64,000 nucleotides of DNA, taken from positions 49,098 to 113,097 of the forward strand of contig JAWCLG010000002.1 in NCBI GenBank assembly GCA_038851075.1, given 5' to 3'. This DNA is from Candidatus Hadarchaeales archaeon (lineage in GTDB: Archaea > Hadarchaeota > Hadarchaeia > Hadarchaeales > Hadarchaeaceae). Shown piece by piece: positions 1-39,477 of the stretch (position 1 is its first letter; every line of letters begins with the position of its first letter). The notes under the pieces are model-generated. The model had not been told where the DNA came from and ran no database searches. It saw only the letters and a program-made list of their open reading frames with translations. Position numbers and translations under genes: made by a program.

Positions 1-327
1 GGGCACATCCATCCATCGGTAGAATTCAGAGATAAAATGGGCGGGCGCGCAACCGCTCCAGTTTGGTTAAGATGCACAATGAACCCAGAGAAGATGCCTA
101 AAAAAATTGAAAAACATGCCGGGAAAAAACTGCCCAAGTTGATAGTTCTCCCGGCTTTCAGCGATCTTGTGGGATATGCCCCGGTGAACAGGGAAATGCC
201 GGGCGAGCTGATAGGTCCACTTTTCAGGTCGGGAGTGGTCAACCTATCCGATGCTGAGGTCTACATGCTAGACGGCACATTTGTCGGAAAGGTCAACGAT
301 ATGAAAAAGCGGAATCAATTCCGCTAG
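1..327 (+). CDS. Calcineurin-like metallophosphoesterase, C-terminal part (5'-truncated by window)
   Basis: Frame open from base 1 reading GHIHPSV...; GHxHP and later LIVLPAFS motifs typical of archaeal metallophosphoesterases. Confidence 0.75.
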   Translation, partial: GHIHPSVEFRDKMGGRATAPVWLRCTMNPEKMPKKIEKHAGKKLPKLIVLPAFSDLVGYAPVNREMPGELIGPLFRSGVVNLSDAEVYMLDGTFVGKVNDMKKRNQFR

Positions 328-5682: not shown

Positions 5683-6870
5683 TCAGGTCTTTCTTCCCTC
5701 AAGCAGATTCTCAAGCTCTTTCTCCAGCCACGCCACTGGCGCTTCCTGTATACCGATCTTTTTCTTCCCTTTAGAGCGCGCCTCCTTCACCTCAACAAGT
5801 CCGAGTCCCTCCATTCTTTTTAAATACTCCCAGAACTGGCTCTTCTCTCGTGGCTGCTCTCCGTATTCTTCGCATGCCGCACGATATGTTTTGTCTAGGT
5901 CTTCCCTTAACGTGTACGCCTTACCGGAAGATCTGAGTCTCCTGCACAGAGAGAGCAGAAGTATCTTTTCGTGGGGTAACAGCTCGCGCAAAACCTCGCG
6001 CTTGATAACCGGATAAACCTCGGCCTTTGCCTCCCTGACGTGCTCCGGATTGACCGAACTCTCTAACTTTCCATCTGCGATGAGCCCTGCCCTCCACAAC
6101 AGCTCGAGCGCAAATCTAGCATCTCCAGTTGAAGATGCGATGTCGGCTATAAGATCCACAGACTCCTCCTCTACGGCCCCGGGTTTGAATGCCTCGTGGA
6201 TTCTCTGCTGAAGTATGTCTTTAAGCTGCTCGGCAGTGTACCTGTTAAGCTCAAGCACGTTATGCATAAACGTGCTCTGTGTCGGGAGGTCAAGCGATTT
6301 GAGAAACTCCCTGTCCTTAGCAACAGCTATGATACTTATTCTGTTAGGCTGGCCTTCATCCTCATACATCCTAGTCAGCGAGTACATCAGGTCGGGACCC
6401 TCCATGCGGACGTAATAGTCTATTTCATCAAGGCAAAGGGTGAGGTATGCATCGTGCGTCCTCATGTAGGTTGAGATCAGATCTATCAGTTTTTCCGGTG
6501 ACAGCCCATGATGAGGCCATTTTGGATTGTAATGATGATGTATTTTGGATATGATCGAAAAGTAGCTCTTGTCCTTTCTGCAGTTTATGTGGAGATAGCT
6601 CAGATTCATTCCTCTCCCCTTCGCCGTAGCCTCCAGATCGGCGCCAAACCTTCCCGCTATGGCAGTCTTTCCTACCCCAACGCTTCCTGTGATTAAAACC
6701 CGCTGGCTCATCCTGTTCTCCAGGAGAGGTCTAAAAACTCTGATTAACCATCTAAACTCCTCATCTCTGTGCACCAAAACCTGAGGGACGTAGTCTGGAG
6801 AGAGTTTGCTCGCGTCCCTGAAAACTGACGGCCTTTCCAGTTCCTCCTCGAAGAGATTCCTCATTTGCAC
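5683..6870 (-). CDS. cdc6: Orc1/Cdc6 replication initiator paralog
   Basis: LSPDYVP..HRDEE, Walker A GSVGVGKT, LDEID, GDARFAL, C-terminal winged helix. Confidence 0.92.
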   Translation of the reverse strand: MQMRNLFEEELERPSVFRDASKLSPDYVPQVLVHRDEEFRWLIRVFRPLLENRMSQRVLITGSVGVGKTAIAGRFGADLEATAKGRGMNLSYLHINCRKDKSYFSIISKIHHHYNPKWPHHGLSPEKLIDLISTYMRTHDAYLTLCLDEIDYYVRMEGPDLMYSLTRMYEDEGQPNRISIIAVAKDREFLKSLDLPTQSTFMHNVLELNRYTAEQLKDILQQRIHEAFKPGAVEEESVDLIADIASSTGDARFALELLWRAGLIADGKLESSVNPEHVREAKAEVYPVIKREVLRELLPHEKILLLSLCRRLRSSGKAYTLREDLDKTYRAACEEYGEQPREKSQFWEYLKRMEGLGLVEVKEARSKGKKKIGIQEAPVAWLEKELENLLEGRKT

Positions 6871-17902: not shown

Positions 17903-19033
17903 ATGATAATGGCTGGAGCGAGGGGTTCTAGAGCGATTTCATCTAGGAAAGGGAGTAAACCCGATCCTGCACGAAGAGTGGCCAGAAGCATAATTGCTTT
18001 TACATTTATAATCGTGTGTATTTTCCTTACCCTCCTCATCCTGAATATACGAGGAATCATTGCTCTCAGGGGTTCGGACGTTTCTTTCTCTTTTTATCCA
18101 TACGGTGTGTCTGTCTATGATGTCGTGCAGTTCACCGAAAACCCAAACAATTCTAACAAGGCAATTGTGACACGGATATGGGACTTTGGAGACGGGACAA
18201 CGTCAACGGAAAACGCCCCCGTACACCAGTATACCTCTCCTGGAGAGTACACTGTCTCCCTAACACTGATTGATAGTGAAGGCAAACGTGAGACATCTTC
18301 AAGAAAGATATATGTCAGTGGATCGGATTCTTCAAACTGGGTTCTAGTCTGGAGCGACGAGTTTAACGGAAATTCCGTCGATCGGAGCAAGTGGCAATTT
18401 GAATTGGGCGGGTGGGGATGGGGCAACAACGAATTGCAGTACTACACGAATGGAGGGAATGCTAAAGTCGAAAACGGTTTGTTGATTATCACGGCAAAAA
18501 AGGAGAGAATGGGAAGCTGTAATTATACATCAGCTAGATTAAAAACACAGGGTTTGTTCGATATTCAATATGGCAGGATAGAAGCCAGACTTTCTGTGCC
18601 GATGGGAGATGGACTGTGGCCTGCCTTCTGGATGCTCGGCAGGAACATTGGATCAGTCGGATGGCCAAAATGTGGAGAGATAGACATCATGGAACACATT
18701 AACAACGAAACCACAATATATGGCACGATGCACTGGCATTACAACGGTCACGTTTCTTCAGGGGGGCAAGTGCTAAATCTAACTCCAAATTCCTTCCACG
18801 TATACGCCGTTGAGTGGGACTCGTCCTCAATAAAGTGGTTCCAAGACGGTGTACAATACTATGAGGTACCGATTCAGAACAGCATGGATAGCACTGAAGA
18901 GTTCCACCAGCCCTTCTTTATTATTTTGAACTTGGCGGTCGGTGGGAACTGGCCTGGCCCCCCCAGCTCAAACACGCCTTTCCCGGCGGAATATAAAATC
19001 GACTACGTCCGCGTGTTCAAACCTACAAGCTGA
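17903..19033 (+). CDS. Membrane-anchored PKD + GH16 beta-1,3-glucanase (laminarinase-like)
   Basis: N-terminal TM; WDFGDG..PVHQY PKD; WSDEF, GWGNNELQYY, WPAFWMLG and catalytic EIDIME. Confidence 0.92.
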   Translation: MIMAGARGSRAISSRKGSKPDPARRVARSIIAFTFIIVCIFLTLLILNIRGIIALRGSDVSFSFYPYGVSVYDVVQFTENPNNSNKAIVTRIWDFGDGTTSTENAPVHQYTSPGEYTVSLTLIDSEGKRETSSRKIYVSGSDSSNWVLVWSDEFNGNSVDRSKWQFELGGWGWGNNELQYYTNGGNAKVENGLLIITAKKERMGSCNYTSARLKTQGLFDIQYGRIEARLSVPMGDGLWPAFWMLGRNIGSVGWPKCGEIDIMEHINNETTIYGTMHWHYNGHVSSGGQVLNLTPNSFHVYAVEWDSSSIKWFQDGVQYYEVPIQNSMDSTEEFHQPFFIILNLAVGGNWPGPPSSNTPFPAEYKIDYVRVFKPTS

Positions 19034-20054: not shown

Positions 20055-20456
20055 CTACTGAACCGACATTTTTCTGCGTCCCCTAGCTTTCCACTGGAGG
20101 ACCCTGTCCTTCCACTTTTCAAATTTCTCTGTTTCAAACGAGGGCCCACCCCATTTTAAAATAAAATCTAAAAGACGAAAAAGATCTTCTTTTCTCCTTA
20201 ACTCCAATCTATAAAGCCCGCCGCGCGTTACCACTTTACCCGCACCCAAAATTTTTCTAGCGGTTTCCACTGGATAGATCTTCTTAGAGTCTGCGTAAAA
20301 GACCGGATTGATGTAGCCGTATTTTATTTCTCCTTTTTTAGTTTTTTTTGTTATATTTATTTTATTTACTGTATAAACCCCTTTAAACTCAAGAAATGCT
20401 ATAAGCCATCCTATATCATACTCTTTTCCTTTCATTTTATCTAATATATTTATCAT
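20055..20456 (-). CDS. Degenerate LAGLIDADG homing-endonuclease-like protein
   Basis: GWLIAFLEFKG helix then ..PVFY....VETARKILGAGKV....YRLELRRKEDLFRLLDFI, the pattern of a single LAGLIDADG domain; acidic motif altered. Confidence 0.55.
   Translation of the reverse strand: MINILDKMKGKEYDIGWLIAFLEFKGVYTVNKINITKKTKKGEIKYGYINPVFYADSKKIYPVETARKILGAGKVVTRGGLYRLELRRKEDLFRLLDFILKWGGPSFETEKFEKWKDRVLQWKARGRRKMSVQ
20080..20099 (-). promoter_or_regulatory. ORB-like element (origin recognition box) with G-string
   Basis: Minus strand CTCCAGTGGAAAGCTAGGGG, nearly identical to the 20483 element. Confidence 0.6.
20263..20274 (-). promoter_or_regulatory. Mini-ORB
   Basis: Minus strand TCCAGTGGAAAC. Confidence 0.5.
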
Positions 20457-20695
20457 AACTATTTATTAATAATAGATAATTATTCCAGTGGAAACTAAGG
20501 GGTGGCCGTCAAGTGCGGGGAAAAAATTGTTATGTTTTTTTCTTAAAATAAAAAATAAATAGTTTAGAAAACCGAAAAATGGTAATTAAATGTTTGATAA
20601 CGTCCAAATTGGTAAAATAAAAAACATGAAAATCAAGGCCAGTCCGGCGACCCCCCTCCCCAAAGTTGGCTTAAGGCAAACTAAACAAACAAAGT
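20457..20695. other. Candidate replication origin (ORB plus AT-rich unwinding element)
   Basis: Non-coding; ORB at 20483; very AT-rich 20521-20637 bracketed by G-rich (20499-20520) and C-rich (20645-20661) tracts. Confidence 0.65.
20483..20502 (+). promoter_or_regulatory. ORB element with G-string
   Basis: TTCCAGTGGAAACTAAGGGG matches the archaeal ORB consensus TTCCAnTGGAAAnnnnGGGG. Confidence 0.8.
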
Positions 20696-21532
20696 TTGGG
20701 TAGGGAAGTGTACTACCAAAGAATTGACGTAAAAAACGCCGTTTGTGGATATTCGACGTCTAGTAAGAGCTATGGGGTACGAGAGGGGGCTTTTTTTAAT
20801 GCTAGAAAAAAGACATTTCAGAGGTACACTGAAACGATAGATGGGAAAAAACCAGTGGAGCTTACCCCATCAGAGGTTTCCAAGGCAGCCGAGGCAGGGG
20901 CAATAGCATTTTACTGTTCGTACTGGCTATACGACTGTAACGACTTTAGAGAACCGACCGGTAGAGATCTCGTTTGGGTTATCCGAATAGAGAAAGGGGA
21001 CTTGGAGTTCGCGAAAAAGTTGACGAGAGCAGCCGCAGAGGCATTGTGGGAAGCAGGGGCGGAGCCTTTTGTAAAGTATTCTGGAGACCTAGGATTCGAC
21101 ATTATATTGCCTCTAGAAAGCATACCGTTCGAAGTCTGGCATGGAAATATAGACGCACTGGATGACCTTCAGGGTGAGCTTTCCGATGTCATAGTCAGCA
21201 GTATCCGCTCACGGCTAGGGCTGGTTGTAGAGGGAGACAGACACTCGTTTAAAATAAAAGAGGATGAAAAAACCTCCCTCCTCTCCGAACTCCGGGTGAA
21301 GCGAGGCCTTTTGCTTGCGCCGATGAGCATAAACCCGGAGACAGGGCTGGTTTCTGTCCCGGTGGATCCTAGGGAGCTAGATAATTTTACAATCTTTGAC
21401 GCGAGCCCGTCTAAAGTCATAGGCAAAATATGGAGATTCGGTTCTGGCCCGAGTTATGGTCTAATCAAATACGCGAAGCTTGGTCAAGTTCGATCTTTGG
21501 AGGATAATCAGTCAGAGGAGCAGGCGTTTTAG
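20696..21532 (+). CDS. Archaeo-eukaryotic primase (PriS-like) fold protein, catalytic residues degenerate
   Basis: YYQRIDV, GAIAFYCS..W, GRDLVWVI, VKYSGDLGFDIILP, RGLLLAPMSINPETGLVSVP correspond to AEP motifs I-III; start uncertain. Confidence 0.7.
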   Translation: MGREVYYQRIDVKNAVCGYSTSSKSYGVREGAFFNARKKTFQRYTETIDGKKPVELTPSEVSKAAEAGAIAFYCSYWLYDCNDFREPTGRDLVWVIRIEKGDLEFAKKLTRAAAEALWEAGAEPFVKYSGDLGFDIILPLESIPFEVWHGNIDALDDLQGELSDVIVSSIRSRLGLVVEGDRHSFKIKEDEKTSLLSELRVKRGLLLAPMSINPETGLVSVPVDPRELDNFTIFDASPSKVIGKIWRFGSGPSYGLIKYAKLGQVRSLEDNQSEEQAF

Positions 21533-21554: not shown

Positions 21555-22178
21555 GTGGAGGCCCTTATCTCAAGAATAAACGAGATCCGGTGTCAACATA
21601 AGGAAGCGAGAAAAAGGATACGGGAATTTATAAACATGCAGAAATGTGGGAACGAGGATTGGTTTTCCGAACTGTGTTTTTGTATTTTGACCGCAAATTC
21701 CACGGCGGAGTCTGGGATTCGATCGCAGAGGCGGATAGGGACAAAAGGATTTCTTACTCTTTCAGAGAAGCAGCTGGCAAAAGAACTTAGGAAATCTAAG
21801 CATAGGTTCCCAAACGTTAGGGCAAAATTCATAGTGGAGGCGAGAAAGCACATGAAAATCAAGGACGCCGTAATGAATGCCGGCAGCCCACAAAAAGCGC
21901 GCGCTTGGCTTGTGAAAAATGTAAAGGGTATCGGCTGGAAGGAAGCGAGTCATTTTTTGAGAAATGTGGGATATCTAGACCTTGCCATTCTGGACAGACA
22001 TGTGTTGAGAATTCTTCGTGAATATGGCATAATAAAGGAGATTCCGCGCCATCTTTCAGAGAAAAGTTATCTCGAAATAGAGGAAAAAATGAAGGAACTG
22101 GCAAATAGAATGAAAATGAGTCTAGGGGAGCTGGATCTGTATTTGTGGTGTATTAAAACCGGAAGGATTCTCAAGTAG
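21555..22178 (+). CDS. ogg: 8-oxoguanine DNA glycosylase/AP lyase
   Basis: ELCFCILTAN, HRFPN.RA, VKGIGWKEASHFLRNVG, LAILDRH, ELDLYLW. Confidence 0.93.
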   Translation: MEALISRINEIRCQHKEARKRIREFINMQKCGNEDWFSELCFCILTANSTAESGIRSQRRIGTKGFLTLSEKQLAKELRKSKHRFPNVRAKFIVEARKHMKIKDAVMNAGSPQKARAWLVKNVKGIGWKEASHFLRNVGYLDLAILDRHVLRILREYGIIKEIPRHLSEKSYLEIEEKMKELANRMKMSLGELDLYLWCIKTGRILK

Positions 22179-23031
22179 TCTTTATGAGATGCGTGCCGTC
22201 GCAGGTACCCCCGGTGTTGAGGTGTGGCAGGCCCTCCCTGCACGATGAGAACGTGACACCAGTTTCAAGGCAGGCGGCCCTGACAGAACGCATGAGATCC
22301 TCTCTAATTTTCTTAGGCAGGTACCATCCGCGTCTTTTCTCTCCTTTGTTGAAGTACAGGTCCCGTAGCTTTAGCGCCTCATCAGGAAAAGCGGATGAGA
22401 ATCTACGCCATCCATCGAGCCTTGGTTTGAATGTGGATGCAGTTACATGAGAAACACCGGCTTCGGAGGCAACCTCAACTATCTCCCTTACCTCGTCATC
22501 ATTGACGAATGGAATTATCGGATCGAGCCGTAGAGAAGTTGGCACACGTTTAGAGAGAGTTTTGATAGTGGCCAGCCTTAATGATGGCTTAGGTGCACCT
22601 GGTTCTAGCCTGCGGGCCAGTGAGTCATCAATAGTTGTGACGGTGAAACTTACAACGCATGGAATTTTTTTAAGCACGTCGAAATCACGAGCCACAATGT
22701 TTGATTTCGTAATTATCTGTACCCTGCATCCCTTTTTAGAGATGATCTCGAGACATTTTCTTGTGAGCCCGAGTTTTGCTTCAACTGGGGGATACGGGTC
22801 CGAACTGTTTGACATGCTTATTATGGTATTTGAATCCATTTTTTCGATATCACGTTCTACCTTAGAAATCAGGTCCTTTTTTTCTCTTGCCTCGAATGCA
22901 TTCGGTATATATGAGGAGATATAGCAGTAAACGCACGAGTGGGAGCACCCGGTATATGGATTCAGACCGTATTTTTTGGGACAGGTACAGAGGGGGTCTT
23001 TCCAAGGATCAAACTCTCTAACTACTGCCAT
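22171..23031 (-). CDS. Radical SAM protein, SplB-like (COG1533)
   Basis: FDPW..LCTCPKKY..NPYTGCSHSCVYCY, SDPYPP, LEPGAP....RL; start moved to ATG 23031. Confidence 0.88.
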   Translation of the reverse strand: MAVVREFDPWKDPLCTCPKKYGLNPYTGCSHSCVYCYISSYIPNAFEAREKKDLISKVERDIEKMDSNTIISMSNSSDPYPPVEAKLGLTRKCLEIISKKGCRVQIITKSNIVARDFDVLKKIPCVVSFTVTTIDDSLARRLEPGAPKPSLRLATIKTLSKRVPTSLRLDPIIPFVNDDEVREIVEVASEAGVSHVTASTFKPRLDGWRRFSSAFPDEALKLRDLYFNKGEKRRGWYLPKKIREDLMRSVRAACLETGVTFSSCREGLPHLNTGGTCDGTHLIKTT

Positions 23032-23051
23032 TTTCTCAGAAAAACGATAAC

Positions 23052-23327
23052 ACGCGCCGAGATAAAGGCCCCCACATCCCTCCAGACCCCGGGCGATGTA
23101 GCCCAGCCGAACCGCCAAGGGCAGCCCGCCGAACCACATCGTTCCGACCTTTTCAGATCGTGTGGTTACCCTTTCGAGTTACCACGCCGCGGCCCTGAGG
23201 AGACTCCGAACAAGTCTTGTCAGCCTGCTGTTCAGAACACCGCAGATCGGCCAATCTGCAGTGCCCCTACCAGTGGGATCCACCAAGACCCATTCTAGAG
23301 ACCTTCCGGATCGCCCTCTCGGCGCGT
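23052..23327 (-). ncRNA. Unassigned structured RNA (~276 nt)
   Basis: 11-bp terminal stem, several long G-U-rich hairpins, two GAAA tetraloops, TATA-like box ~25 nt upstream. Confidence 0.7.
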
Positions 23328-23347
23328 TTTTTACTCTATCTTCTTGG

Positions 23348-23429: not shown

Positions 23430-23567
23430 ATGCCAAGGTGCTGCCCCTCTTGCTATTTGTATGATGAATGCGAAAAAAGGGGAGAGTGCTGCGAGGAATG
23501 CGATTTTTACAGCAGGGGCAAGTGCATGTTAATGGACAAGGAATCTTATGGAATACTCGACAAATAA
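23430..23567 (+). CDS. Small Cys-rich putative metal-binding protein (45 aa)
   Basis: GGGAGGAG before ATG 23430; MPRCCPSC..C...CC..C...C with 8 Cys. Confidence 0.65.
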   Translation: MPRCCPSCYLYDECEKRGECCEECDFYSRGKCMLMDKESYGILDK

Positions 23568-29931: not shown

Positions 29932-31953
29932 TTGGAGGCTGGGCGATTGGTTGGCAGTACAGTTAAAGAGAGGCTAGAGGAATTCATCCGCCGTAAGGAT
30001 TTCCTGAAAGAAACCAAAAAGAGGACCGCGTCCGGACATAAGTCGGTAGTGGTTTCTTTCTCGGAAATTTTGGATTTCGATAAAGATCTGGCAAACGGGC
30101 TTTTGGATTCTCCTTCAGATATACTGGACTGGGCTGATAAAAAACTTGAGGAGATCACCGGCATTCCGAACATGCACCTCCGGGTGTATGGTCTGCCAGA
30201 AACAGTGGAGATAAGAAATATACGCGCAGACCACGTTGGGAAGTTCATTCAGGTTGACGGTATACTTACAAAGGCAGGAGAAGTAAAACCGGAGGCAAGG
30301 GAGGCCGTTTTCAAGTGCAGGTTCTGCGGTGAGGAAAATAGGGTGATACAGGCAGGCGAGTTCTTCAGGGAGCCGCTTTCATGTGAGAATCCGAACTGCA
30401 GGAGAAAGGGTGCTTTTGAACTCGTTATAGAGAGCACAGTATTCAGAGACTGGCAGAGCATTTCTGTGCAGGAACCACCAGAGAAGCTTAGGGGAGGAAG
30501 AATCCCGCAGAAGTTGGACGGTATACTCAGAGACGACTTCGTTGATAGAGCAGTCCCAGGAAACCATGTCACCGTAACAGGTGTTCTAAAGGTTTTCCAT
30601 GAGAGGCAGAAGAGAGAGCGCAGAACCACATTTAGGAAAATACTGTTTGTCAATCACATAGATGTGCGGCAGAAAGGAGTGGAGGAAACTGAGCTGACCC
30701 CTGAGGATGAGAAGAAGATAAGCGAACTTGCTAAGGATCCATGGCTCAGGAACAAAATAATTCAGTCAATAGCGCCTGCGATTCACGGCCATGAGGTCAT
30801 AAAAGAAGCAGTTGCATTGCAGTTATTCGGCTGTAATCCAGTAGAACTCCAGGATGGAACTAGAATAAGGGGTGATGTTCACATTTTGTTATGCGGCGAT
30901 CCGGGAACTGCAAAGAGCCAGATTCTTAAGTGGGTTTCAAACGTTGCCCCCCGTGGACTTTATACATCTGGAATGAAAACCACGGCCGCTGGAATCACTG
31001 CAGCGGCTGTTCGAGATGAGATAGGAGGCGGGTGGGCGCTTGAGGCGGGAGCCCTCGTGATAGCGGATGGGGGTATTGCGTGCGTAGATGAGTTTGAGAA
31101 AATGGATGCGCAGGAGTCCTCGGCGATCTTGGAGTCTATGGAGCAGCAGACAGTTAGCATAGCCAAGGCTGGTATAGTGGCCACGCTGAACACCCGCACT
31201 GCGGTCCTCGCCGCGACAAATCCCAAGTATGGGAGATTCGAGAGAAACATACCACCTCCCAAACAGCTTGCGATAGAGCCAGTTCTTCTCTCTAGGTTCG
31301 ACCTGATACTTTTGCTTAAAGACGAGCCAAGACCTGACCTCGATCACTCAATAGCACAGCACGTTCTTCAGCTTCACTCTTCACCAAAAAAGGTCACCAA
31401 GGCACCGTTTGATGTGGATTTTCTGAGAAAAATAGTGATATATTCAAGAAAGTATCTTGACCCTAAGATACAGGACAAAGAGGTGATGAAGGCAATAGAG
31501 GACTTTTTCGTGGAGTGGAGAAAAGTAGTTTCTCAGGGAGCCCCGCTTCCGATAACCGTCAGGCAACTGGAATCAATAATCCGGCTCGCAAAGTGCAATG
31601 CTAGGATGAGGTTGAGCGACAGAGTAACAGTTGAGGACGCAAACAAGGCAGTGGCGCTAATAAAAACCAGTCTAAGTGAGGCAGGAATAGATACGGAGGC
31701 AAACGTCGTTGACATAGATTTAATAATGACGGGAATTCCAAAGTCACAGAGGGATAAGCGCCAGAGGATAATGGACATCATAGGACAGCTCGAGGAACAG
31801 TATGGAGGTGCGGCCCCGATATCCAAGGTAAAGGACCTTGCCTCATCGGAGGGAATATCAGAAAATTTTGTGGAGCGGATGATTGAGGAAGAAAAGAAAC
31901 GTGGATATCTGTACTCTCCGACTCCGGAGACCGTAAGCAGGGCGGTGAAGTGA
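29932..31953 (+). CDS. mcm: MCM replicative helicase (no intein); start possibly TTG 29947
   Basis: Zn finger, GDPGTAKSQ, CVDEFEKM, MEQQTVSIAKAG, SRFD, C-terminal winged helix. Confidence 0.97.
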   Translation: MEAGRLVGSTVKERLEEFIRRKDFLKETKKRTASGHKSVVVSFSEILDFDKDLANGLLDSPSDILDWADKKLEEITGIPNMHLRVYGLPETVEIRNIRADHVGKFIQVDGILTKAGEVKPEAREAVFKCRFCGEENRVIQAGEFFREPLSCENPNCRRKGAFELVIESTVFRDWQSISVQEPPEKLRGGRIPQKLDGILRDDFVDRAVPGNHVTVTGVLKVFHERQKRERRTTFRKILFVNHIDVRQKGVEETELTPEDEKKISELAKDPWLRNKIIQSIAPAIHGHEVIKEAVALQLFGCNPVELQDGTRIRGDVHILLCGDPGTAKSQILKWVSNVAPRGLYTSGMKTTAAGITAAAVRDEIGGGWALEAGALVIADGGIACVDEFEKMDAQESSAILESMEQQTVSIAKAGIVATLNTRTAVLAATNPKYGRFERNIPPPKQLAIEPVLLSRFDLILLLKDEPRPDLDHSIAQHVLQLHSSPKKVTKAPFDVDFLRKIVIYSRKYLDPKIQDKEVMKAIEDFFVEWRKVVSQGAPLPITVRQLESIIRLAKCNARMRLSDRVTVEDANKAVALIKTSLSEAGIDTEANVVDIDLIMTGIPKSQRDKRQRIMDIIGQLEEQYGGAAPISKVKDLASSEGISENFVERMIEEEKKRGYLYSPTPETVSRAVK

Positions 31954-32495
31954 TGCGGAAGAGCGTCATGTTTGGAGAAGAGATGGAAGAAGTTAAGCTC
32001 GTTGATAGGACGTTAGGACCGTTTTCTGCCGGAGATGAGGTTGAGCTCTGGAAATGGGATGCAGAAGTGCTCGAAAAGCATTCTCTGGTGGTTCCTTCAA
32101 AGTTATTTTCAGTTCAGGATATGCGCAAGTTAGCACTGCTTCAGGAGAGAAGTCAGAGCCCGATTACTCTCCCAGCAGACTTTTACAGCATCGCATTAGA
32201 CAGCTTTAGGGACATTCTATCTTCTGAGGGCAGGAAGGCGGCCGATGAGATGAAATCCGCATTGATGTCTCTTGTTGAGATAAGGATACCAAAACTGGTT
32301 TTACTTTCCGTGTCTTCCGGTTCGGGTTTTAATCTTCCACCGGAGGAGATGGTGCTTATCAACAGGATTTCGGAGGAAGTTGATGAATGGAGCAGAAAAT
32401 TTTTGAATGAGCTGAAAAAAATCGGGGAGGAGGTAGAAAAAGGTGGTTCAGGAGGGACTGTTCCACGAAATTCTACGGACGAGGCAGATATTTAA
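31950..32495 (+). CDS. gins23: GINS subunit, Gins23 type (B-A domain order)
   Basis: N-terminal LGPFSAGDEVELWKWDA beta domain, then helical LPADFY...RIPKLV domain; overlaps the mcm stop. Confidence 0.72.
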   Translation: MMRKSVMFGEEMEEVKLVDRTLGPFSAGDEVELWKWDAEVLEKHSLVVPSKLFSVQDMRKLALLQERSQSPITLPADFYSIALDSFRDILSSEGRKAADEMKSALMSLVEIRIPKLVLLSVSSGSGFNLPPEEMVLINRISEEVDEWSRKFLNELKKIGEEVEKGGSGGTVPRNSTDEADI

Positions 32496-33717
32496 AAATA
32501 GGGAGTATCTCAGACCGAGCTACACGCCGGATGAACTCCCACATAGAGAAGATCAGATCAAACAGCTCGCCAGAATACTCGCCGCACCACTGCGTGGAGA
32601 AACTCCATCCAACATATTCATATATGGAAAACCCGGCACCGGAAAGACGGCATGTGTCAACTATGTCGGAAAGGAACTCGAAAAAGTCAGCGATAATGCA
32701 CCTTTTGGGGTGGAGGTTGTTTACCTTAACTGCGAGATCATCAACACACCGTATCGCATTCTCGCTAGGCTGTCAGACCACTTCATAGATAAGTTAAAAA
32801 GATCCGAGGAAGGCGGAGATCAGGCGGTTATTCCGGAGAAGGCGCCTAAAACGGGATGGCCGATGGATGAAGTTTACAGGATTTTTTTCAACGCTTTGGA
32901 CTCCAGAAAACAGCTTGGGGTGGTAATTCTCGACGAGGTAGATAAACTGGTTAAGAAGAGCGGAGACGATATACTTTACATCCTCACGAGGATGAATTCA
33001 GACCTTAAGTCATCCAAAGTCGCTGTGGTTGGAATTTCAAATGACACCAACTTTATGGAGTACCTTGATCCAAGGGTTAGAAGTAGCCTTGGACAAGAGG
33101 AAATAGTTTTTCCGGCCTACAACGCGCTGCAGCTGGCAGATATACTGCGAAAAAGAGCGGAGATGAGCTTTGTTGAAGGGGCTGTTGGGATTGGTGTGAT
33201 AGACCTCTGTGCTGCTCACGCGGCCAGAGAACACGGCGATGCTAGGAGAGCGCTTGATCTGCTGAGGGTTTCAGGCGAGATAGCAGAGTCAAAAAACGCA
33301 GAGGCAGTCACTACTGAGCATGTGATGCTGGCGCACTTGCAGATAGAGCGGGACAAAATGGTCGAGGTGATAAAAACCCTTCCAGCACAATCAAAGCTCG
33401 TCCTTTACAGTATAGTTTACCTCATGGAAAGGACACCACGTAGGATAGTGAGCGGCGATGTTTACAGCGTATATCGAGAAAAGTGTATCAGCACTGGAAA
33501 TTCGGTGCTCACCCCGAGAAGAGTGAGCGACCTTATATCTGAGTTGGATACACTTGGCATAATCAGCGCAACAATAATCAACAAAGGCAGATACGGCAGA
33601 ACAAAGGAGATAAAGCTGAATGTTCATCCCACCCAGGTGATGGCGGCGATCATCGAAGACCTACATGGAGTGAGCGCTAGCACAACAAGCGTTGCGGGGA
33701 CCAGTTTTGGTTTTTAG
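32443..33717 (+). CDS. cdc6: Orc1/Cdc6 replication initiator (Orc1-1 type)
   Basis: YTPDELPHRE, GKPGTGKT, LDEVD, HGDARRALDLL, LTPRRVSDLISEL, GRYGRTK. Confidence 0.96.
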   Translation: MVQEGLFHEILRTRQIFKNREYLRPSYTPDELPHREDQIKQLARILAAPLRGETPSNIFIYGKPGTGKTACVNYVGKELEKVSDNAPFGVEVVYLNCEIINTPYRILARLSDHFIDKLKRSEEGGDQAVIPEKAPKTGWPMDEVYRIFFNALDSRKQLGVVILDEVDKLVKKSGDDILYILTRMNSDLKSSKVAVVGISNDTNFMEYLDPRVRSSLGQEEIVFPAYNALQLADILRKRAEMSFVEGAVGIGVIDLCAAHAAREHGDARRALDLLRVSGEIAESKNAEAVTTEHVMLAHLQIERDKMVEVIKTLPAQSKLVLYSIVYLMERTPRRIVSGDVYSVYREKCISTGNSVLTPRRVSDLISELDTLGIISATIINKGRYGRTKEIKLNVHPTQVMAAIIEDLHGVSASTTSVAGTSFGF

Positions 33718-35259
33718 GTGGGACATGTGGAGGAAAACATTCTTATTCACAGGTTTATGGACCTAGGAGTACAGCTGAGCGAGGGGGCCCTCAAGTATAT
33801 AATGAGCCAGAGCGACCCTGAGGCGACGGCATATCTTGTGATATCAAAGTTATCAAAGATGGAAAAAAGACCATTTTTAATAACAACTGATGCGATATCC
33901 GCAATTTTAATGGAATCAATGGAGGAAACCCAAGTATTACATGAGGATCAGACTAGACCATCTGAGATAATTAAAAAATCCGTTCACACAAAGTTCAGGC
34001 CCGTTGCAGCGGAGTACGAGTCTAAAGTCAGTGTGAGGAGAGATATAACTGGAAAAAGCTACAGTGAAGGTGACATAAGGGACTTTTGGAGCCTTTTTTC
34101 AGATAGGTACGATAGGGTGAGCAGGCTCCTCCGTAACAGGGTGGAGCTCAGGGAAGCTGTTCCAATGGAAACCCTATCAAGTATGGGTGAAAGGGAAAAA
34201 GTAAGTGTAATAGGGATGGTCGCGGATAGACGCGAATCTTCTGCTGGAAATATAATAATAGACCTGGAGGATCCAACCGGCAGGGCCTTGGCTCTGGTTT
34301 TCAAGGGGAAGAAGGACCTTGTTTCTAAGGCTATGGATGTGGTAACTGACGAGGTCATAGGTGTTGTAGGATCACTTAGACCAGGTGATAGAATCCCGCG
34401 CATTTTCGTTACCGACATAGTTTGGCCGGATCTCCCCGTCAAACACGAGCTTGGCAGATCAGAGGACCCAGTCTGCGCGGCACTTATATCCGACCTACAT
34501 GTCGGAAGCGAAATGTTTCTTGAGGATGTGTTCATGAAGTTCATGAAATGGCTTAATGAAGGGGCGGATGGGAAAGCTGAGGCGGAGCTGGCCGGAAAGG
34601 TGAAGTACCTGGTTGTTGCGGGCGACATTGTGGACGGAATAGGAGTTTATCCCGGCCAGGAGGGTGAGCTTCTTGTCGATGATATATTCAAACAGTATGA
34701 GATAGCGGCAAAACTTTTGGCTGAAGTACCGGACTACATAACTGTTATTGTCACACCGGGTAATCACGATGCAGTGCGTCCGTCCGAACCGCAGCCGGCG
34801 ATACCGAAGGATATTGCGGGTGATTTTTATGAGAGAGGGTTCTTGATGGCAGGAAATCCGGTTTTGGCCAACATCCATGGCGTGAATTTCATAGTATATC
34901 ATGGAAGGAGCGTTGATGATATGGTAGGCGCCGTTCCGGGTCTTGACAGAAAGGATTCGGTAAAGCCGTTTGTAAAGCTTCTTCAGAAGAGGCACCTCGC
35001 ACCGATTTATGGCGGAAGAACTGCGATCTCCCCTGAGAGAGCGGACTATATGGTTATCGATGAAGTGCCGGACGTCTTGCACTGCGGCCATGTCCACGTT
35101 AATGGGTACTCTAAGTACAGGGAAGTTTCGATCGTAAACTCTGGAACTTTTCAGTCAAAAACTCTATACATGCAAAAACTTGGGGTTGAGCCGACCCCTG
35201 GGATGGTACCGATATTTGATCTGCAGACCCACCAGGTGAGGGTGGTTCGATTTGCTTAG
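33718..35259 (+). CDS. polB: DNA polymerase D small (proofreading) subunit DP1
   Basis: OB fold, SDLHVGS, AGDIVDG, PGNHD, YHG, GHVH. Confidence 0.96.
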   Translation: MGHVEENILIHRFMDLGVQLSEGALKYIMSQSDPEATAYLVISKLSKMEKRPFLITTDAISAILMESMEETQVLHEDQTRPSEIIKKSVHTKFRPVAAEYESKVSVRRDITGKSYSEGDIRDFWSLFSDRYDRVSRLLRNRVELREAVPMETLSSMGEREKVSVIGMVADRRESSAGNIIIDLEDPTGRALALVFKGKKDLVSKAMDVVTDEVIGVVGSLRPGDRIPRIFVTDIVWPDLPVKHELGRSEDPVCAALISDLHVGSEMFLEDVFMKFMKWLNEGADGKAEAELAGKVKYLVVAGDIVDGIGVYPGQEGELLVDDIFKQYEIAAKLLAEVPDYITVIVTPGNHDAVRPSEPQPAIPKDIAGDFYERGFLMAGNPVLANIHGVNFIVYHGRSVDDMVGAVPGLDRKDSVKPFVKLLQKRHLAPIYGGRTAISPERADYMVIDEVPDVLHCGHVHVNGYSKYREVSIVNSGTFQSKTLYMQKLGVEPTPGMVPIFDLQTHQVRVVRFA

Positions 35260-36055
35260 ATGCAGAGCGCTCGACGGAATTTCAGGCGTTATAATTGACC
35301 TTGATGGAGTCGTGTGGGTGGGTAGAACAACAGTGGCTGGGGTCCAAGAGGCCATTCAGGCCATAAGAAGGATGGGAAAGCGAATAGTTTTCACGACAAA
35401 TAACTCCTCAAAAAGCAGGAAGGAGTACGTAAAGATGCTCAGGAGGTCAGGGGGGGATGCAGAGGAGCATGAGGTCTTAACTTCAGGATATGCTGCTGCG
35501 GAGTACCTTAGGCGAAAAAAAGACGCAGTCCGGGCCCATGTAGTTGGCGAGAGGGGACTTAGAGAGGAACTCGTGCGCGCCGGAATAAAGATTCTCCCAG
35601 AAGAAAAATCGGAGGATGCCACCCATCTGGTTGTTGGCTTAGACAGAACGATCAACTACAGAAAAATATGGTTCGCCATGAAGTCTCTCATGTCAGGAGC
35701 GGAGTTCGTGGCAACAAACACAGATCCAACTTACCCAACTGAACTCGGGCTTACACCAGGGGCTGGGGCGATTGTCGGTGCAATCTCAGGATGCTCGGGC
35801 AGAAATCCAGATGTAGTGCTCGGAAAACCATATCCTTACATCATGAAAATGGCTCTTGAATTGCTGGGCACAGGCGCAGGTCAGACCGCGATAATTGGCG
35901 ACAGGCTGGAGGTTGATGTAAAGGCAGGAAAATTGTGTGGCATAAGGACAATACTAGTTTTGAGTGGGGTTACAAAAAGAGAAGATCTGAGAAAAGTGGA
36001 GAGGGATATGAGGCCAGATTTTGTTTTTAACAGTCTTTCAGAGGTGGTGTCATGA
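35252..36055 (+). CDS. HAD-IIA (NagD-like) phosphatase
   Basis: DLDGV, TNNS, ATNTD, GKP, IGDRLEVD, VLSGVT. Confidence 0.92.
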   Translation: MLRCRALDGISGVIIDLDGVVWVGRTTVAGVQEAIQAIRRMGKRIVFTTNNSSKSRKEYVKMLRRSGGDAEEHEVLTSGYAAAEYLRRKKDAVRAHVVGERGLREELVRAGIKILPEEKSEDATHLVVGLDRTINYRKIWFAMKSLMSGAEFVATNTDPTYPTELGLTPGAGAIVGAISGCSGRNPDVVLGKPYPYIMKMALELLGTGAGQTAIIGDRLEVDVKAGKLCGIRTILVLSGVTKREDLRKVERDMRPDFVFNSLSEVVS

Positions 36056-39000
36056 GCGGAGGTAACATGTTGGAGTACTTTAGGTCTATGAACGAGCAGA
36101 TAGACGGCATATATGAAATTGCCATAAAGGCGAGAGCTAAGGGGATAGATCCAGAACTTGAACCAGAAATACCGCGCGCCGGGGATCTCGCCTCTAGAGT
36201 TGAGCAACTTGTTGGTCCCAAAGGAGTTGCCGAGGTTATTCGAGACATGGAGAAGATCATGGGCAGAGAAGAGATGGCGCTGAAGATTGCGGAAATGATA
36301 ATAGACGGCAGATTTGGAAGGTTAGATGAGGAAAAGGCGGCAGAGCAGGCGTTGAGGACGGTACTCGCGATTCTTACAGAGGGCGTGGTTATAGCCCCTC
36401 TTGAGGGCATAACTGGAGTTAGGATAAGAAAGAACTATGACAACACCAGATATCTCTCAATCTCTTTTGCAAGCCCAATTAGAGCGGCCGGAGGCACAGC
36501 CGCTGCGCTTTCCGTGCTGGCCGGAGATTTTGTCAGAAGGAAGCTGTTTCTGAGCCACTACAAACCAACCGTGGAAGAGGTGGAGAGGTTCGTTGAGGAG
36601 GTTGAGATATACGGCTTAGTGGCCCATGAGCAGTACAAGCCTCACGCTGACCACATACGTCTTGCAATACAGAACATCCCGGTTGAGATCACAGGGGAAC
36701 CAACCGAGAGAGATGTCACGGTAACTGCGTTCAGGAACATCGAGCGCATCGGGCATAATATGGTAAGGGGAGGTGCGGTACTTGCACTGACCGAGGGAGT
36801 TCTCCAGAAGGCTTCAAAGATAATGAAGTATGTGGAGAAACTTGGCATAGATGGATGGGCATGGCTTTCGAACGTTGTTCCTAAGACCACACCTGAGGAA
36901 TCTGAAACTATTTTCCCGAAGGGAGATAGATATCTGGGAGAGGTAATAGCGGGAAGACCCATACTATCCCATCCAGGAACCGAGGGGCAGATGGGTAGAA
37001 GGGGAGGTTTTAGGCTCAGGTACGGACATTCGAGAAATACGGGAATCGCGGCGATCGGCATTCATCCTGCCACAATGATAATTTGCGATGACTTCATCGC
37101 GGTTGGTACGCAGTTGAAGGTCGAGCGTCCCGGAAAGGGCGGGGCCGTGACCCCAGTGGATTCCATAGAGGGACCGGTGGTAAAGCTTAAAGACGGCTCG
37201 GTTTTGCAGGTTTATTCAGAAGAGGAAGCGCTAAAAGTAAGGGATAGTGTTGCGGAAATACTCTGCCTAGGAGATATTCTTGTTGGATACGGGGAGTTCT
37301 TGGAGAACAATCATCCGTTGATGCCGGCAGGTTATTGTGAGGAATGGTGGAGTCAGGAGGTTAAAAAGGCGCTATCGGGGAAGGAGAGAAGGGACCTAGA
37401 AAAATATATTGAAAAACCGTATCCGAGACCTAGCTCTGATCTTGCCGTCAGAATTTCGGAAGAACTTGGAGTACCGCTTCACCCGGCTTACACTTATCCA
37501 TACCACGACTTGGAGATAGAGGATCTCGTGAGTCTGGCAAGGTGGTTGGTCAAGGGGAGGCCGGAGTTTGACGGAGGGGTGCTGAGAAAACTGAGAATTC
37601 AGATCGAGGAGGTTCCTAAACGAATTCTGGAAGAGCTATGCGTTCCCCACGGTGTTGATGGGAAAGATGTGGTTATTGAAGAGCATGCATATGCCCTGTG
37701 CAGGTCTCTCGGGTTGGTCTTCGGTGACTCACTTGTCATTGAGAGATTTGAGGGGGTCATGCGGTCCAGTTCAACCAAGGACATAATGGAGATAGTACAG
37801 GAACTCGCAGGTTTTCCGATCAGAAAGAAGGCCCCGACAAGAATAGGTGCAAGGATGGGCAGACCGGAGAAGGCCAAGGAGAGGGAGATGAGCCCACCAG
37901 TCCATGCTCTTTTTCCAGTAGGTTTTAAGGGGGGATCCACCCGCAGCATAGCGAGAGCAGCGGAGTCTGATGACCTAGAGGTGGAGCTTGCGAACATGGT
38001 TTGCCCGAGCTGTGGCTGGAGCGGTTTTACGAGAAAATGTCAGAAGTGCGGTTCTAAGGCTGAGCCTGTAAGAGTATGCCAGAAATGCATGGCCCCTGTT
38101 GATGAAGATCGATGCCCAATCTGCAACTCACGCGCGGAGTTCTTCATTAAAAGAAGAATTAAACTAAAAGCAATGCTTGAGTCAGCGCTGAAGAGACTTG
38201 ATGAATATCCGGAGCTCGTTAAAGGAGTGCAGGGCATGACAAGCGACTGGAAAATTCCGGAGCCGCTTGAAAAGGGAATCCTGCGGGCAAAACACGGAGT
38301 TCAGGTATTCAAGGATGGAACAGTTAGATTTGACGAGACAAATGTTCCGCTCACCCATTTCAAGCCAAAGGAGATTGGCGTCTCGGTGGAAAAGCTAAGA
38401 GATCTTGGATACACAGTCGACTTTAACGGAAATCCGCTTGAGGCGGAAGATCAGGTGGTTGAGCTTAAGGTTCAGGATATTGTTATCTCGAGGGCATGTG
38501 CAGAATATCTGTTCAAAGCATCTAGGTTCATTGACGAGCTTCTGGAAAAGGTATATGGTCTTGCCCCTTATTACAATGCTAAAAGACCGGAGGACCTTTT
38601 GGGGCACATAGTCCTCGGTCTGGCTCCCCACACATCGGTTGGAATAGCGGGGCGCATCATAGGTTTCGTCGATGCCAGCGTTGGATATGCGCATCCATTT
38701 TTCCACGCTGCGAAAAGGAGGGACGCGGACGGTGATGAAGATTGTGTAATGTTGCTTCTCGATGCTTTATTGAACTTTAGCAGACGCTTTCTGCCTTCAA
38801 AACGCGGTGGTCTAATGGACGCGCCGCTTATCCTCAGCACTCGGATAAATCCGGCAGAAATAGATAAGCAGGCTCATAACATGGACATAATGAATTTTTA
38901 CCCGCTTGAGTTCTATGAGGCAACTTTGCGCTATGCGAGACCTCAGGAGGTTTTTGCTCAGATGAAAACAGCAGGTAAAAAAATAGGTACAGAGGATGAG

Positions 39001-39477
39001 TACACCGGATTTGGCTACACCCATGAGACTAACGATATTTCGGCAGGTCCGAAGTCAACTAGGTACATAAAGTTGACGACTATGGAGGAAAAGATTTCTG
39101 CCCAGCTGAGCCTGGCAAGGAAAATAAGGGCTGTTGATGAGAGAGATGTCGCAGAGCGGCTTATAAAGCACCACTTCATCCCAGACCTCAAAGGAAATTT
39201 GAGGACGTTTGCGACTCAAAAGTTCAGGTGTACATCATGCAATAATAGCCATCGCAGGATACCGCTCTCAGGAAAATGCACGAGGTGCGGAGGAAAACTC
39301 GTTCTTACTGTAACGAGAGGTGGGGTTGAAAAATACCTGCGTGTTGCCATGGACGTTGCCGATGACTACCATGTGAGTGAATACACAAAACAGAGGCTGA
39401 AGATGACAAAAAAGGACATAGAGTCGATGTTCGAAAGTGATGCCTCCAGACAGCTGAGTCTGGCAGATTTCCTGTAA
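36052..39477 (+). CDS. polC: DNA polymerase D large subunit DP2 (no intein)
   Basis: PIRAAGGTA, GGFRLRYG, RMGRPEK, AAKRRDADGDED, Zn modules, C-terminal QLSLADFL PIP box. Confidence 0.97.
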   Translation: MSGGNMLEYFRSMNEQIDGIYEIAIKARAKGIDPELEPEIPRAGDLASRVEQLVGPKGVAEVIRDMEKIMGREEMALKIAEMIIDGRFGRLDEEKAAEQALRTVLAILTEGVVIAPLEGITGVRIRKNYDNTRYLSISFASPIRAAGGTAAALSVLAGDFVRRKLFLSHYKPTVEEVERFVEEVEIYGLVAHEQYKPHADHIRLAIQNIPVEITGEPTERDVTVTAFRNIERIGHNMVRGGAVLALTEGVLQKASKIMKYVEKLGIDGWAWLSNVVPKTTPEESETIFPKGDRYLGEVIAGRPILSHPGTEGQMGRRGGFRLRYGHSRNTGIAAIGIHPATMIICDDFIAVGTQLKVERPGKGGAVTPVDSIEGPVVKLKDGSVLQVYSEEEALKVRDSVAEILCLGDILVGYGEFLENNHPLMPAGYCEEWWSQEVKKALSGKERRDLEKYIEKPYPRPSSDLAVRISEELGVPLHPAYTYPYHDLEIEDLVSLARWLVKGRPEFDGGVLRKLRIQIEEVPKRILEELCVPHGVDGKDVVIEEHAYALCRSLGLVFGDSLVIERFEGVMRSSSTKDIMEIVQELAGFPIRKKAPTRIGARMGRPEKAKEREMSPPVHALFPVGFKGGSTRSIARAAESDDLEVELANMVCPSCGWSGFTRKCQKCGSKAEPVRVCQKCMAPVDEDRCPICNSRAEFFIKRRIKLKAMLESALKRLDEYPELVKGVQGMTSDWKIPEPLEKGILRAKHGVQVFKDGTVRFDETNVPLTHFKPKEIGVSVEKLRDLGYTVDFNGNPLEAEDQVVELKVQDIVISRACAEYLFKASRFIDELLEKVYGLAPYYNAKRPEDLLGHIVLGLAPHTSVGIAGRIIGFVDASVGYAHPFFHAAKRRDADGDEDCVMLLLDALLNFSRRFLPSKRGGLMDAPLILSTRINPAEIDKQAHNMDIMNFYPLEFYEATLRYARPQEVFAQMKTAGKKIGTEDEYTGFGYTHETNDISAGPKSTRYIKLTTMEEKISAQLSLARKIRAVDERDVAERLIKHHFIPDLKGNLRTFATQKFRCTSCNNSHRRIPLSGKCTRCGGKLVLTVTRGGVEKYLRVAMDVADDYHVSEYTKQRLKMTKKDIESMFESDASRQLSLADFL

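Follow-up and report, generated by a model that had tools for sequence, protein, structure and literature searches.

Archaeo-eukaryotic primases (AEPs) are characterized by motifs that have been defined as hhhDhD/E (motif I), sxH (motif II, in which some families tolerate Gln for His), hD/E (motif III, which may be either hD or hE) and a nucleotide-binding Arg or Lys residue (motif IV) (PMC10250227). Work on PolpTN2 revealed that mutating both Asp residues of motif I, or the Arg of motif IV alone, abolishes primase and polymerase activity; the His of motif II is naturally replaceable, so that its loss alone is not fatal, and in RepE/RepS a nearby acid may substitute (PMC5862659). A monomeric primase is, according to a 2026 preprint, restricted to one DPANN clade (10.64898/2026.06.17.729505), and the same preprint proposes a grouping of DPANN archaea with Hadarchaeota (10.64898/2026.06.17.729505; PMC7414124). 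PriX, a non-catalytic, lineage-specific protein derived from primase, has been described in Sulfolobales (PMC9258230). With respect to gene regulation, the damage response of Saccharolobus islandicus relies on an Orc1-2 element of 20 bases with the consensus AATAGTTTCRGWDTACTCWS, which lies shortly before the start codon and whose ANTTTC core is needed both for induction and for binding (PMC6061795).

The gene reported here resides in a stretch of 64,000 nucleotides from Candidatus Hadarchaeales archaeon (GCA_038851075.1, contig JAWCLG010000002.1), which is referred to as the window (Table 1). Its product, which we call the dead AEP, resembles several described systems in part. The whole catalytic domain of the monomeric primases of DPANN cluster 2 and Undinarchaeota (e.g., NEQ395 from Nanoarchaeum equitans) can be aligned with it, and 18 scaffold positions are common to both families. 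However, these monomeric enzymes keep the catalytic Asp, His and Arg residues, all of which the dead AEP has lost, and they possess a fused PriL-type C-terminal domain that is missing from the dead AEP family, whose members end at about 270-280 aa; moreover, the host of the dead AEP retains a canonical PriS-PriL. A winged-helix AEP of Hadarchaeota and the LigD PolDom/Prim-PolC enzymes have the AEP fold as well, and share with the dead AEP a Lys in front of motif II, a Gly at position 204 and a repair-type context, but they keep the DxD pair, the third Asp and the Arg of motif IV, and the former carries a winged helix that the dead AEP lacks. The canonical archaeal PriS also possesses the AEP fold and resembles the dead AEP in the Tyr residues at positions 73 and 79 and in an RY element; the zinc knuckle after motif I, the large helical insert and the catalytic residues of PriS, in contrast, are all absent from the dead AEP. 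Like PriX, the dead AEP appears to be non-catalytic, lineage-specific and primase-derived, but PriX derives from PriL and is a proven primase subunit, whereas the dead AEP derives from the catalytic domain.

Table 1. Features at and around the dead AEP gene; coordinates are those of the window.
Feature	Position	Strand	Remarks
LAGLIDADG-like ORF, conserved, 133 aa	20055..20456	-	inside the predicted origin; divergent from the dead AEP gene
Inverted origin recognition box (ORB) with G-string	20080..20099	-	
Mini-ORB without G-string	20262..20275	-	
AT-rich stretch, predicted unwinding element	20340..20480	.	80% A+T; between the inverted ORBs
ORB with G-string	20483..20502	+	points to the dead AEP gene; matches the euryarchaeal ORB consensus
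Promoter-type element, GGCCAGTCCGGCGACCCCCCTC..CTTAA	20637..20674	+	retains the 3' half and a TATA-like box; the 5' half (ACTTTC) is eroded
Gene for the AEP-fold protein, predicted to be catalytically dead	20708..21532	+	274 aa from GTG 20708 (likely start)
Remodelled motif I, D91-L-V-W-V95-I-R97	20966..20986	+	V95 and R97 stand in the places of both metal-binding Asp
Remodelled motif II, K127-YSG-D-L132-GF-D135	21074..21100	+	Lys, Ser and Gly kept; His replaced by an invariant Asp
Motif III/IV region, L195-N213	21278..21334	+	L196 at the Asp position; invariant E198; R200; R203 kept; G204 for His; L207 for the essential Arg
ogg, 8-oxoguanine DNA glycosylase	21555..22178	+	22 bp downstream of the dead AEP gene
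Radical SAM gene, PA0069/Rv2578c type	22171..23139	-	convergent; weak spore photoproduct lyase match

An AEP fold and its closest active relatives

The open reading frame 20696..21532 (+), which the earlier note had reported as intact, indeed contains no internal stop and comprises 278 aa when counted from TTG 20696; all residue numbers given here refer to this frame. The GTG codon at position 20708 is the likely start, because homologs begin with M-YY, the database copy of the protein is 274 aa long and a purine-rich stretch lies ahead of this codon; the Atlas entry begins at residue 5. With a pI of 5.25, against a family median of 6.2, the dead AEP is no basic protein.

The dead AEP protein has the AEP fold, comprising the RRM-like catalytic core and the N-terminal (alpha/beta)2 unit, and its homology to these enzymes is beyond chance. 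A comparison of the family with 40 active fused primases by hhalign yielded a probability of 99.89 and an E-value of 8e-33 over 247 columns. Searches with the single sequence gave weak matches to LigD Prim-Pol in Pfam (E 0.009) and, over 33 residues, to eukaryotic primase in the PDB, no match in NCBIfam, and none above the cut-off for PF01896 or TIGR00335. When a profile built from 24 homologs was run against 1.84 billion representatives, 279 matches were obtained, with 10 family members ranking first, followed mostly by proteins of 400-550 aa at E 1e-17 or weaker; no longer form of the dead AEP scored in the family range in this search. Those of the 400-550-aa relatives that we examined possess intact AEP motifs and a PriL-like C-terminal domain, and these relatives are monomeric DPANN-type primases; the top-scoring protein outside the family belongs to a cluster named Aenigmarchaeota.

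An AlphaFold model of moderate quality (pLDDT 73.5, pTM 0.67, with residues 202-208 below a pLDDT of 50) matched the LigD PolDom best among solved structures (Z 12.5, rmsd 3.1, 157 aligned residues) and archaeal PriS at Z 8.3-8.4. All ten structures with Z values of at least 8 are AEPs, the best matches of the LigD type spanning Z 12.5 to 10.2, and Foldseek likewise returned the LigD PolDom/Prim-PolC type (E 5e-5). The Atlas model reached TM values of 0.70-0.75 to primase clusters of Nanobdellota and Aenigmarchaeota and of 0.75-0.78 to clusters of Thermoproteota; hence, the structural relatives extend beyond DPANN.

While these data bear out the assignment to AEPs made in the earlier note, its label "PriS-like" does not stand in the strict sense. 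With the family profile, the PriS of the host scored -0.9 bits and the winged-helix AEP of Hadarchaeota 27-38 bits, as against 79 bits for the best fused primase, a comparison in which the monomeric primases had been picked with this same profile; furthermore, the zinc knuckle and the large helical insert typical of PriS are lacking. Judged by both profile and structure, the nearest active relatives are of the monomeric DPANN type. Two proteins of 650-680 aa (P0176 and P0258) each carry a tandem pair of AEP-like domains akin to the monomeric primase; in P0176, the second domain is apparently degenerate.

A tree of 54 rows, comprising 13 members of the dead family, 25 of the 92 monomeric primases and PriS proteins from Hadarchaeota only, placed the dead family (support 100/100), the monomeric primases (92/92), the winged-helix group (100/98) and PriS (100/99) each on one side of a branch. 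The best tree positions the dead family beside the winged-helix group with weak support (91/73), and neither of the sister-group alternatives was rejected (p-AU 0.254 for both). The dead family falls outside the clade of monomeric primases rather than being nested within it, and a recent transfer from within the DPANN primases is accordingly unsupported. A homolog of the monomeric primase in Hadarchaeota bears on the proposed link between DPANN and Hadarchaeota, a question that the trees presented here do not settle.

Catalytic residues and retention of the gene

To assess the active site, we aligned 126 family sequences (the query, 119 of 140 homolog matches and 6 proteins from the large profile search) with an active comparison set that consisted of 126 of 140 more distant matches, 14 having been dropped by length. 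The first Asp of motif I is found in none of the 126 family sequences (Thr in 90, Ile in 14, Ala in 11, Val in 6) versus 123 of the active enzymes, and the second likewise in none (Arg in 121, Lys in 2) versus 124. An Asp has replaced the His of motif II in the entire family, whereas the His is present throughout the active set, and a Leu occupies the position of the motif IV Arg in all 126 family members, versus 124 Arg and two Lys residues among the active enzymes. Since the corresponding PolpTN2 mutants are inactive and the His is replaceable, the losses of the motif I pair and of the motif IV Arg are the decisive ones. Overall, 18 scaffold positions are common to both sets, while the dead family departs from 15 conserved positions and has newly fixed 12 others. 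Several polar residues that are conserved among the active relatives are missing from it.

The earlier note had quoted the motifs DLVWVIR (aa 91-97), SGDLGFD (129-135) and RGLLLAPMSIN (203-213), along with the scaffold motifs YYxRxDV, GAxxFxCS and TGLVSVP, and all of these are present as quoted, the first two scaffold motifs in the form YYQRIDV and GAIAFYCS. Its proposal that all three catalytic motifs are substituted holds for the motif I Asp pair and the motif II His, and these exchanges are shared family-wide, as is the loss of the essential motif IV Arg; it is less secure for motif III. R203 is kept in the entire family (126/126, versus 121/126 active enzymes), and the change of His to Asn at position 213 was rejected as a lesion, as 47 of the 126 active enzymes naturally carry Asn there. 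Among 119 active sequences, 93 have the Asp of motif III seven residues ahead of the conserved Arg, and the ungapped register leads to L196; two residues away from this lost position stands E198, invariant in 126/126, so that motif III is less cleanly lost than first claimed. As for intact acids in the active site, which the earlier note would have counted against its own proposal, those of motif I are gone from all 126 sequences, and the invariant E198 next to the motif III position is what qualifies this picture. D91 corresponds to a non-catalytic acid that 121 of the 126 active enzymes carry as well. We consider it very probable that the dead AEP protein is not a primase.

The dead AEP gene was found in 45 of 66 Hadarchaeota genomes, as one copy each (in one case split over two contigs), and none of 46 matches contains an internal stop; the one stop that had been flagged, in L055, is located before the start codon and is no sign of decay. 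By genome group, it occurs in 36/45 of f1, 1/1 of f3 and 7/9 of f4, and it was not found in the remaining 21 genomes of the 66, which include all members of f2 (0/6), f5 (0/3) and f6 (0/1). Loss of the gene in f2 and f5 is likely because several of these genomes are more than 90% complete. Because the f4 proteins share 54-67% identity with a named MSBL1 protein, we infer that f4 corresponds to MSBL1. Labels of Hadarchaeota, Hadesarchaea or close spellings are attached to the homologs that carry a name and to 37 of 38 genome loci, and the remaining locus, a 3.7-kb contig labelled Bathyarchaeota, has an identical gene order.

The median dN/dS ratio, calculated over 98 non-independent pairs from 35 sequences, is 0.186 for the dead AEP gene versus 0.244 for ogg and 0.122 for tyrS; the gene is thus under purifying selection. 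A decaying pseudogene, the outcome that the earlier note had pitted against its proposal of a retained pseudo-primase, can be rejected in view of the intact frames and a dN/dS ratio of about 0.19, and retention is further borne out by the family-wide substitutions and by an intact priL-priS pair elsewhere in the genome. The dead AEP as the sole or a replacement primase was likewise rejected, since the PriS of the host is intact and PF01896 matched over the cut-off in 5/5 other genomes. A full-length active fused primase was not found in the 66 Hadarchaeota genomes; the best E-values of the corresponding search, near 1e-22, fell on the dead AEP, the winged-helix AEP or PriL.

The host genome also encodes a winged-helix AEP with LigD-like motifs. 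This type of protein (L002, 1354-2409, - strand) is widespread in Hadarchaeota, and its motif II His is replaced by Gln while its three Asp residues are intact. It is not listed for genus g15, in which 7/7 genomes possess the dead AEP gene, and it occurs in f2 and f5, where the dead AEP gene was not found; hence, presence and absence do not support an obligate pairing of the two proteins.

Upstream element and predicted replication origin

Upstream of the dead AEP genes, the family form of a conserved element reads AATACTTTCGGYGACCYCYCTC and is followed by a CTTAAA box. By hand comparison, 17 of its positions are identical to the 20-base Orc1-2 consensus. When 34 upstream regions of dead AEP genes were scored against this consensus, at least 14 positions matched in 32 of them and at least 15 in 25, a score reached by 12 of 2000 random windows and 14 of 1700 shuffles; taken individually, the promoters of 33 relatives match at 13-18 of the 20 positions, 32 of them at 14 or more. 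The source genome itself departs from this pattern, with a score of 11/20 that equals background and with an eroded 5' half, as is also the case in G001 from the same genus. All four f4 loci examined keep the element without an ORB nearby, and it stays with the dead AEP gene where the latter has left the origin.

A pattern search recovered 149 sites in 30 of 41 genomes, versus 6 for a reversed control. We examined 70 of them, 65 of which have a downstream ORF, and ran 44 against NCBIfam and 24 against Pfam. These 70 sites precede radA ten times (in ten genomes), the dead AEP gene six times, nurA three times, top6B twice, and mcm, xpf, hel308 and a radical SAM gene of the PA0069 type once each. 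Seven further sites stand before TnpA/TnpB genes and seven before genes for LAGLIDADG-domain proteins, the remainder being without assignment; with at least 14 of the 70 sites in front of such genes, the element is not specific to repair genes. The IS200/IS605 tnpA/tnpB genes equipped with it are found at L124, L128, L159, L165, L172, L178 and L182, and such mobile genes may exploit the damage response of the host in this way. In the source genome, radA, top6B, xpf and hel308 lack the element and nurA was not found; a weight-matrix scan of this whole genome (G000) gave background except for one site, and the one other clear copy stands before a LAGLIDADG-HTH gene. Its position before many unrelated genes and ahead of a TATA-like box favours a promoter role over the reading of the element as an anti-Shine-Dalgarno hairpin.

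Both in sequence and in its placement close ahead of the start codon, the element is similar to that of the Orc1-2 regulon of S. islandicus (PMC6061795), and the two Orc1/Cdc6 genes of the Hadarchaeal host are in line with such a regulon. The two systems differ in phylum and in their member genes, the Hadarchaeal regulon being a putative one. This similarity suggests that the Orc1-2-type damage response of Sulfolobales may also run in Hadarchaeota. The second and more divergent Orc1/Cdc6 gene (window 5683-6870, - strand) is a candidate for the regulator acting at this element, and a homolog of it is located directly downstream of the dead AEP gene at L071. A Hef-like helicase is encoded at 324-2420 (-).

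The dead AEP gene adjoins a predicted oriC, characterized by inverted ORBs, an AT-rich element and a skew extremum (Table 1). The box at 20483 fits the euryarchaeal ORB consensus quoted in PMC1868953, and the cumulative G-C minimum of the contig, at 20486, falls on this box. The sequence TCCAGTGGAAA occurs four times in the 1.0-Mb genome, three times of which within 20088-20494 of the window and inverted around the AT-rich stretch. Across the phylum, an ORB pattern gave 38 matches in 29 of 41 genomes, one cluster per genome, versus 2 in the control. In G008, the skew changes sign at the gene, the flanking 20-kb samples being the lowest and the highest of 20 (-0.094 and +0.136), and is weak elsewhere in the genome. 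An ORB lies at most 900 bp upstream of the dead AEP gene in 26 of the 29 loci with that much upstream sequence. The tyrS-to-thrC block around the gene is syntenic as a whole, however, and its adjacency to the origin is therefore not specific; in G038, the gene is about 10 kb away from the ORBs, and in the f2 genomes, in G012 and in G030 the origin persists although the gene is missing.

There is no cdc6/orc1 gene next to the predicted oriC; two copies are located 12 and 14 kb away. A replication cluster (29932-39477, +) comprises mcm, a 181-aa gene, cdc6, the polD small subunit, a HAD hydrolase and the polD large subunit; the 181-aa product has no Pfam match, and we take it to be GINS-like from its position between mcm and cdc6. 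The LAGLIDADG-like gene inside the origin (112-144 aa, with the ORBs within its coding sequence) is present in several f1 genera and in f2, has a dN/dS ratio of 0.22, includes one orthologue that matches LAGLIDADG_1 at E 7e-9, and possibly encodes an origin-binding protein. Other lineages have an unannotated gene of about 185 aa right after the ORB instead (L073, 7339-7899, +; L020, 2339-3040, -), with a dN/dS ratio of 0.18, no Pfam match and a best Atlas value of 0.88 to an Iainarchaeota-rich cluster; the two genes never occur together at one origin among the loci examined. Either of these small genes is tied more tightly to the ORBs than is the dead AEP gene.

Genomic neighbours and possible function

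The ogg gene next to the dead AEP gene is likely co-transcribed with it. Both are present in 33 genomes and adjacent in 30 of these; of the 66 genomes, 12 have the dead AEP gene without a detected ogg, 5 have ogg only and 16 neither. Consequently, an operon is supported but an obligate partnership of the dead AEP with Ogg is not. The ORF of the convergent radical SAM gene probably starts later than called.

The adjacent predicted origin and the damage-response-type promoter are the two most informative features of this context, and both had escaped the earlier note. Because the priming residues are lost and yet the upstream element found in its relatives is common to radA and other repair genes, we give an even chance to the dead AEP being a damage-induced, non-priming helper in DNA repair that binds DNA or nucleotides. 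An Orc1/Cdc6 paralogue would then bind the element and raise expression of the dead AEP upon DNA damage, which is how Orc1-2 acts in Saccharolobus. The former active-site cleft, with Arg97 and Asp135 in place of Asp and His and with the invariant or nearly invariant Lys127, Arg200 and Arg203, might hold a phosphate-bearing DNA end, a gap or a nucleotide in a metal-free manner and without extending it. In doing so, the protein would protect a repair intermediate, for instance an Ogg-generated nick or a 3' end that has stalled, or pass it on to the enzyme that acts next. Speaking against this helper are the non-basic character of the protein, the loss of several conserved polar residues, the erosion of the element in the source genome, its lack of specificity for repair genes, the 21 genomes without the dead AEP gene and the imperfect pairing with ogg; in addition, D135 and E198 could serve a new chemistry.

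The promoter and the ogg context would fit equally well with a cleft that has been rebuilt as a new active site, the protein then being a repair enzyme such as a lyase, a phosphoesterase or a nucleotide-processing enzyme. The residues that could form it are D135, E198, R97, R200, R203 and K127, together with Y73, W77 and W94, and the replacement residues equal catalytic ones in their invariance (126/126 for D135 and E198, 124 for W94, 122 for R200, 121 for R97); in addition, motif III may be hE (PMC10250227) and in RepE/RepS an acid close by may take over (PMC5862659). We nevertheless regard this enzyme as doubtful, given that just two acids are left, that an Arg occupies a metal-ligand position, that the combined swap of Asp to Arg and of His to Asp would read as a salt bridge filling the site, and that part of the region concerned, residues 202-208, is poorly modelled. 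A role as an origin-associated replication factor, which would bind unwound origin DNA or modulate Orc1/MCM loading, draws on the proximity of the ORBs and the skew minimum, on the distance of both cdc6 copies from the origin, on mcm, cdc6 and polD lying 8-18 kb downstream and on the one mcm gene that carries the same upstream element. It is unlikely in our view, as the conserved synteny extends over the entire tyrS-thrC block, the gene and the ORBs are separated in G038, origins exist without the gene in f2, G012 and G030, and the small LAGLIDADG-like or 185-aa genes are the more closely linked to the ORBs.

Dead paralogues often regulate active ones, and the host possesses both an intact priL-priS pair and a winged-helix AEP, beside which the best tree places the dead family, although weakly. 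The scaffolding or regulation of the true primase that the earlier note proposed nevertheless gained no positive support here. A subunit acting as a decoy or regulator, which would bind PriL or the winged-helix AEP and thereby dampen priming once damage has occurred, is quite improbable: the segment after motif II, which carries the PriS-PriL interface, resembles that of the monomeric primases, which lack a PriL N-terminal domain, and not that of PriS, and the distributions of the winged-helix AEP and of the dead AEP gene diverge in g15, f2 and f5. The probability is slight indeed that the protein is still a primase or polymerase with relocated acids, or that its gene is a decaying pseudogene. 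Three invariant acids, D91, D135 and E198, lie close to the old site, and a third of the genomes yielded no copy of the gene; the first of these acids is non-catalytic in active enzymes too, however, the essential Arg of motif IV is missing, as is the PriL C-terminal domain, and the intact frames and the dN/dS ratio rule out decay.

Returning to the damage-induced helper, the dead family offers a small, soluble and testable case of an AEP fold repurposed after the loss of catalysis. A literature search of main texts, chiefly from open-access journals, yielded no description of it, although supplementary gene tables could list the family, and stand-alone, chromosomal and phylum-wide dead primases were not found within the same scope. 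The promoter element supplies a list of candidate member genes of a damage regulon in Hadarchaeota, and a predicted oriC of this phylum, without an adjacent cdc6, is located. As a tentative synthesis, which we hold to be possible rather than probable, a primase fold may have been rebuilt as a metal-free sensor of damaged ends or as a new repair enzyme, with an Arg at the position of the catalytic metal, wired into an Orc1-type damage regulon conserved between Sulfolobales and Hadarchaeota and encoded at an origin; it may also represent a relic of the monomeric primase outside DPANN.

Three further features of the window deserve mention. A non-coding stretch of about 250 nt (23085-23345, -), conserved in 19 loci, folds with covariation (24 of 77 pairs changed on both sides, a value not reached in any of 500 shuffles) and is a candidate orphan structured RNA; it matches no Rfam family, and the RNase P and SRP RNAs lie elsewhere. 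At about 23430-23565 (+), a small Cys-rich ORF precedes an Hsp20-like gene, and similar DNA exists in several relatives. Finally, a GH16 glycoside hydrolase with a PKD domain (17903-19033, +) is inserted between minD and tyrS.
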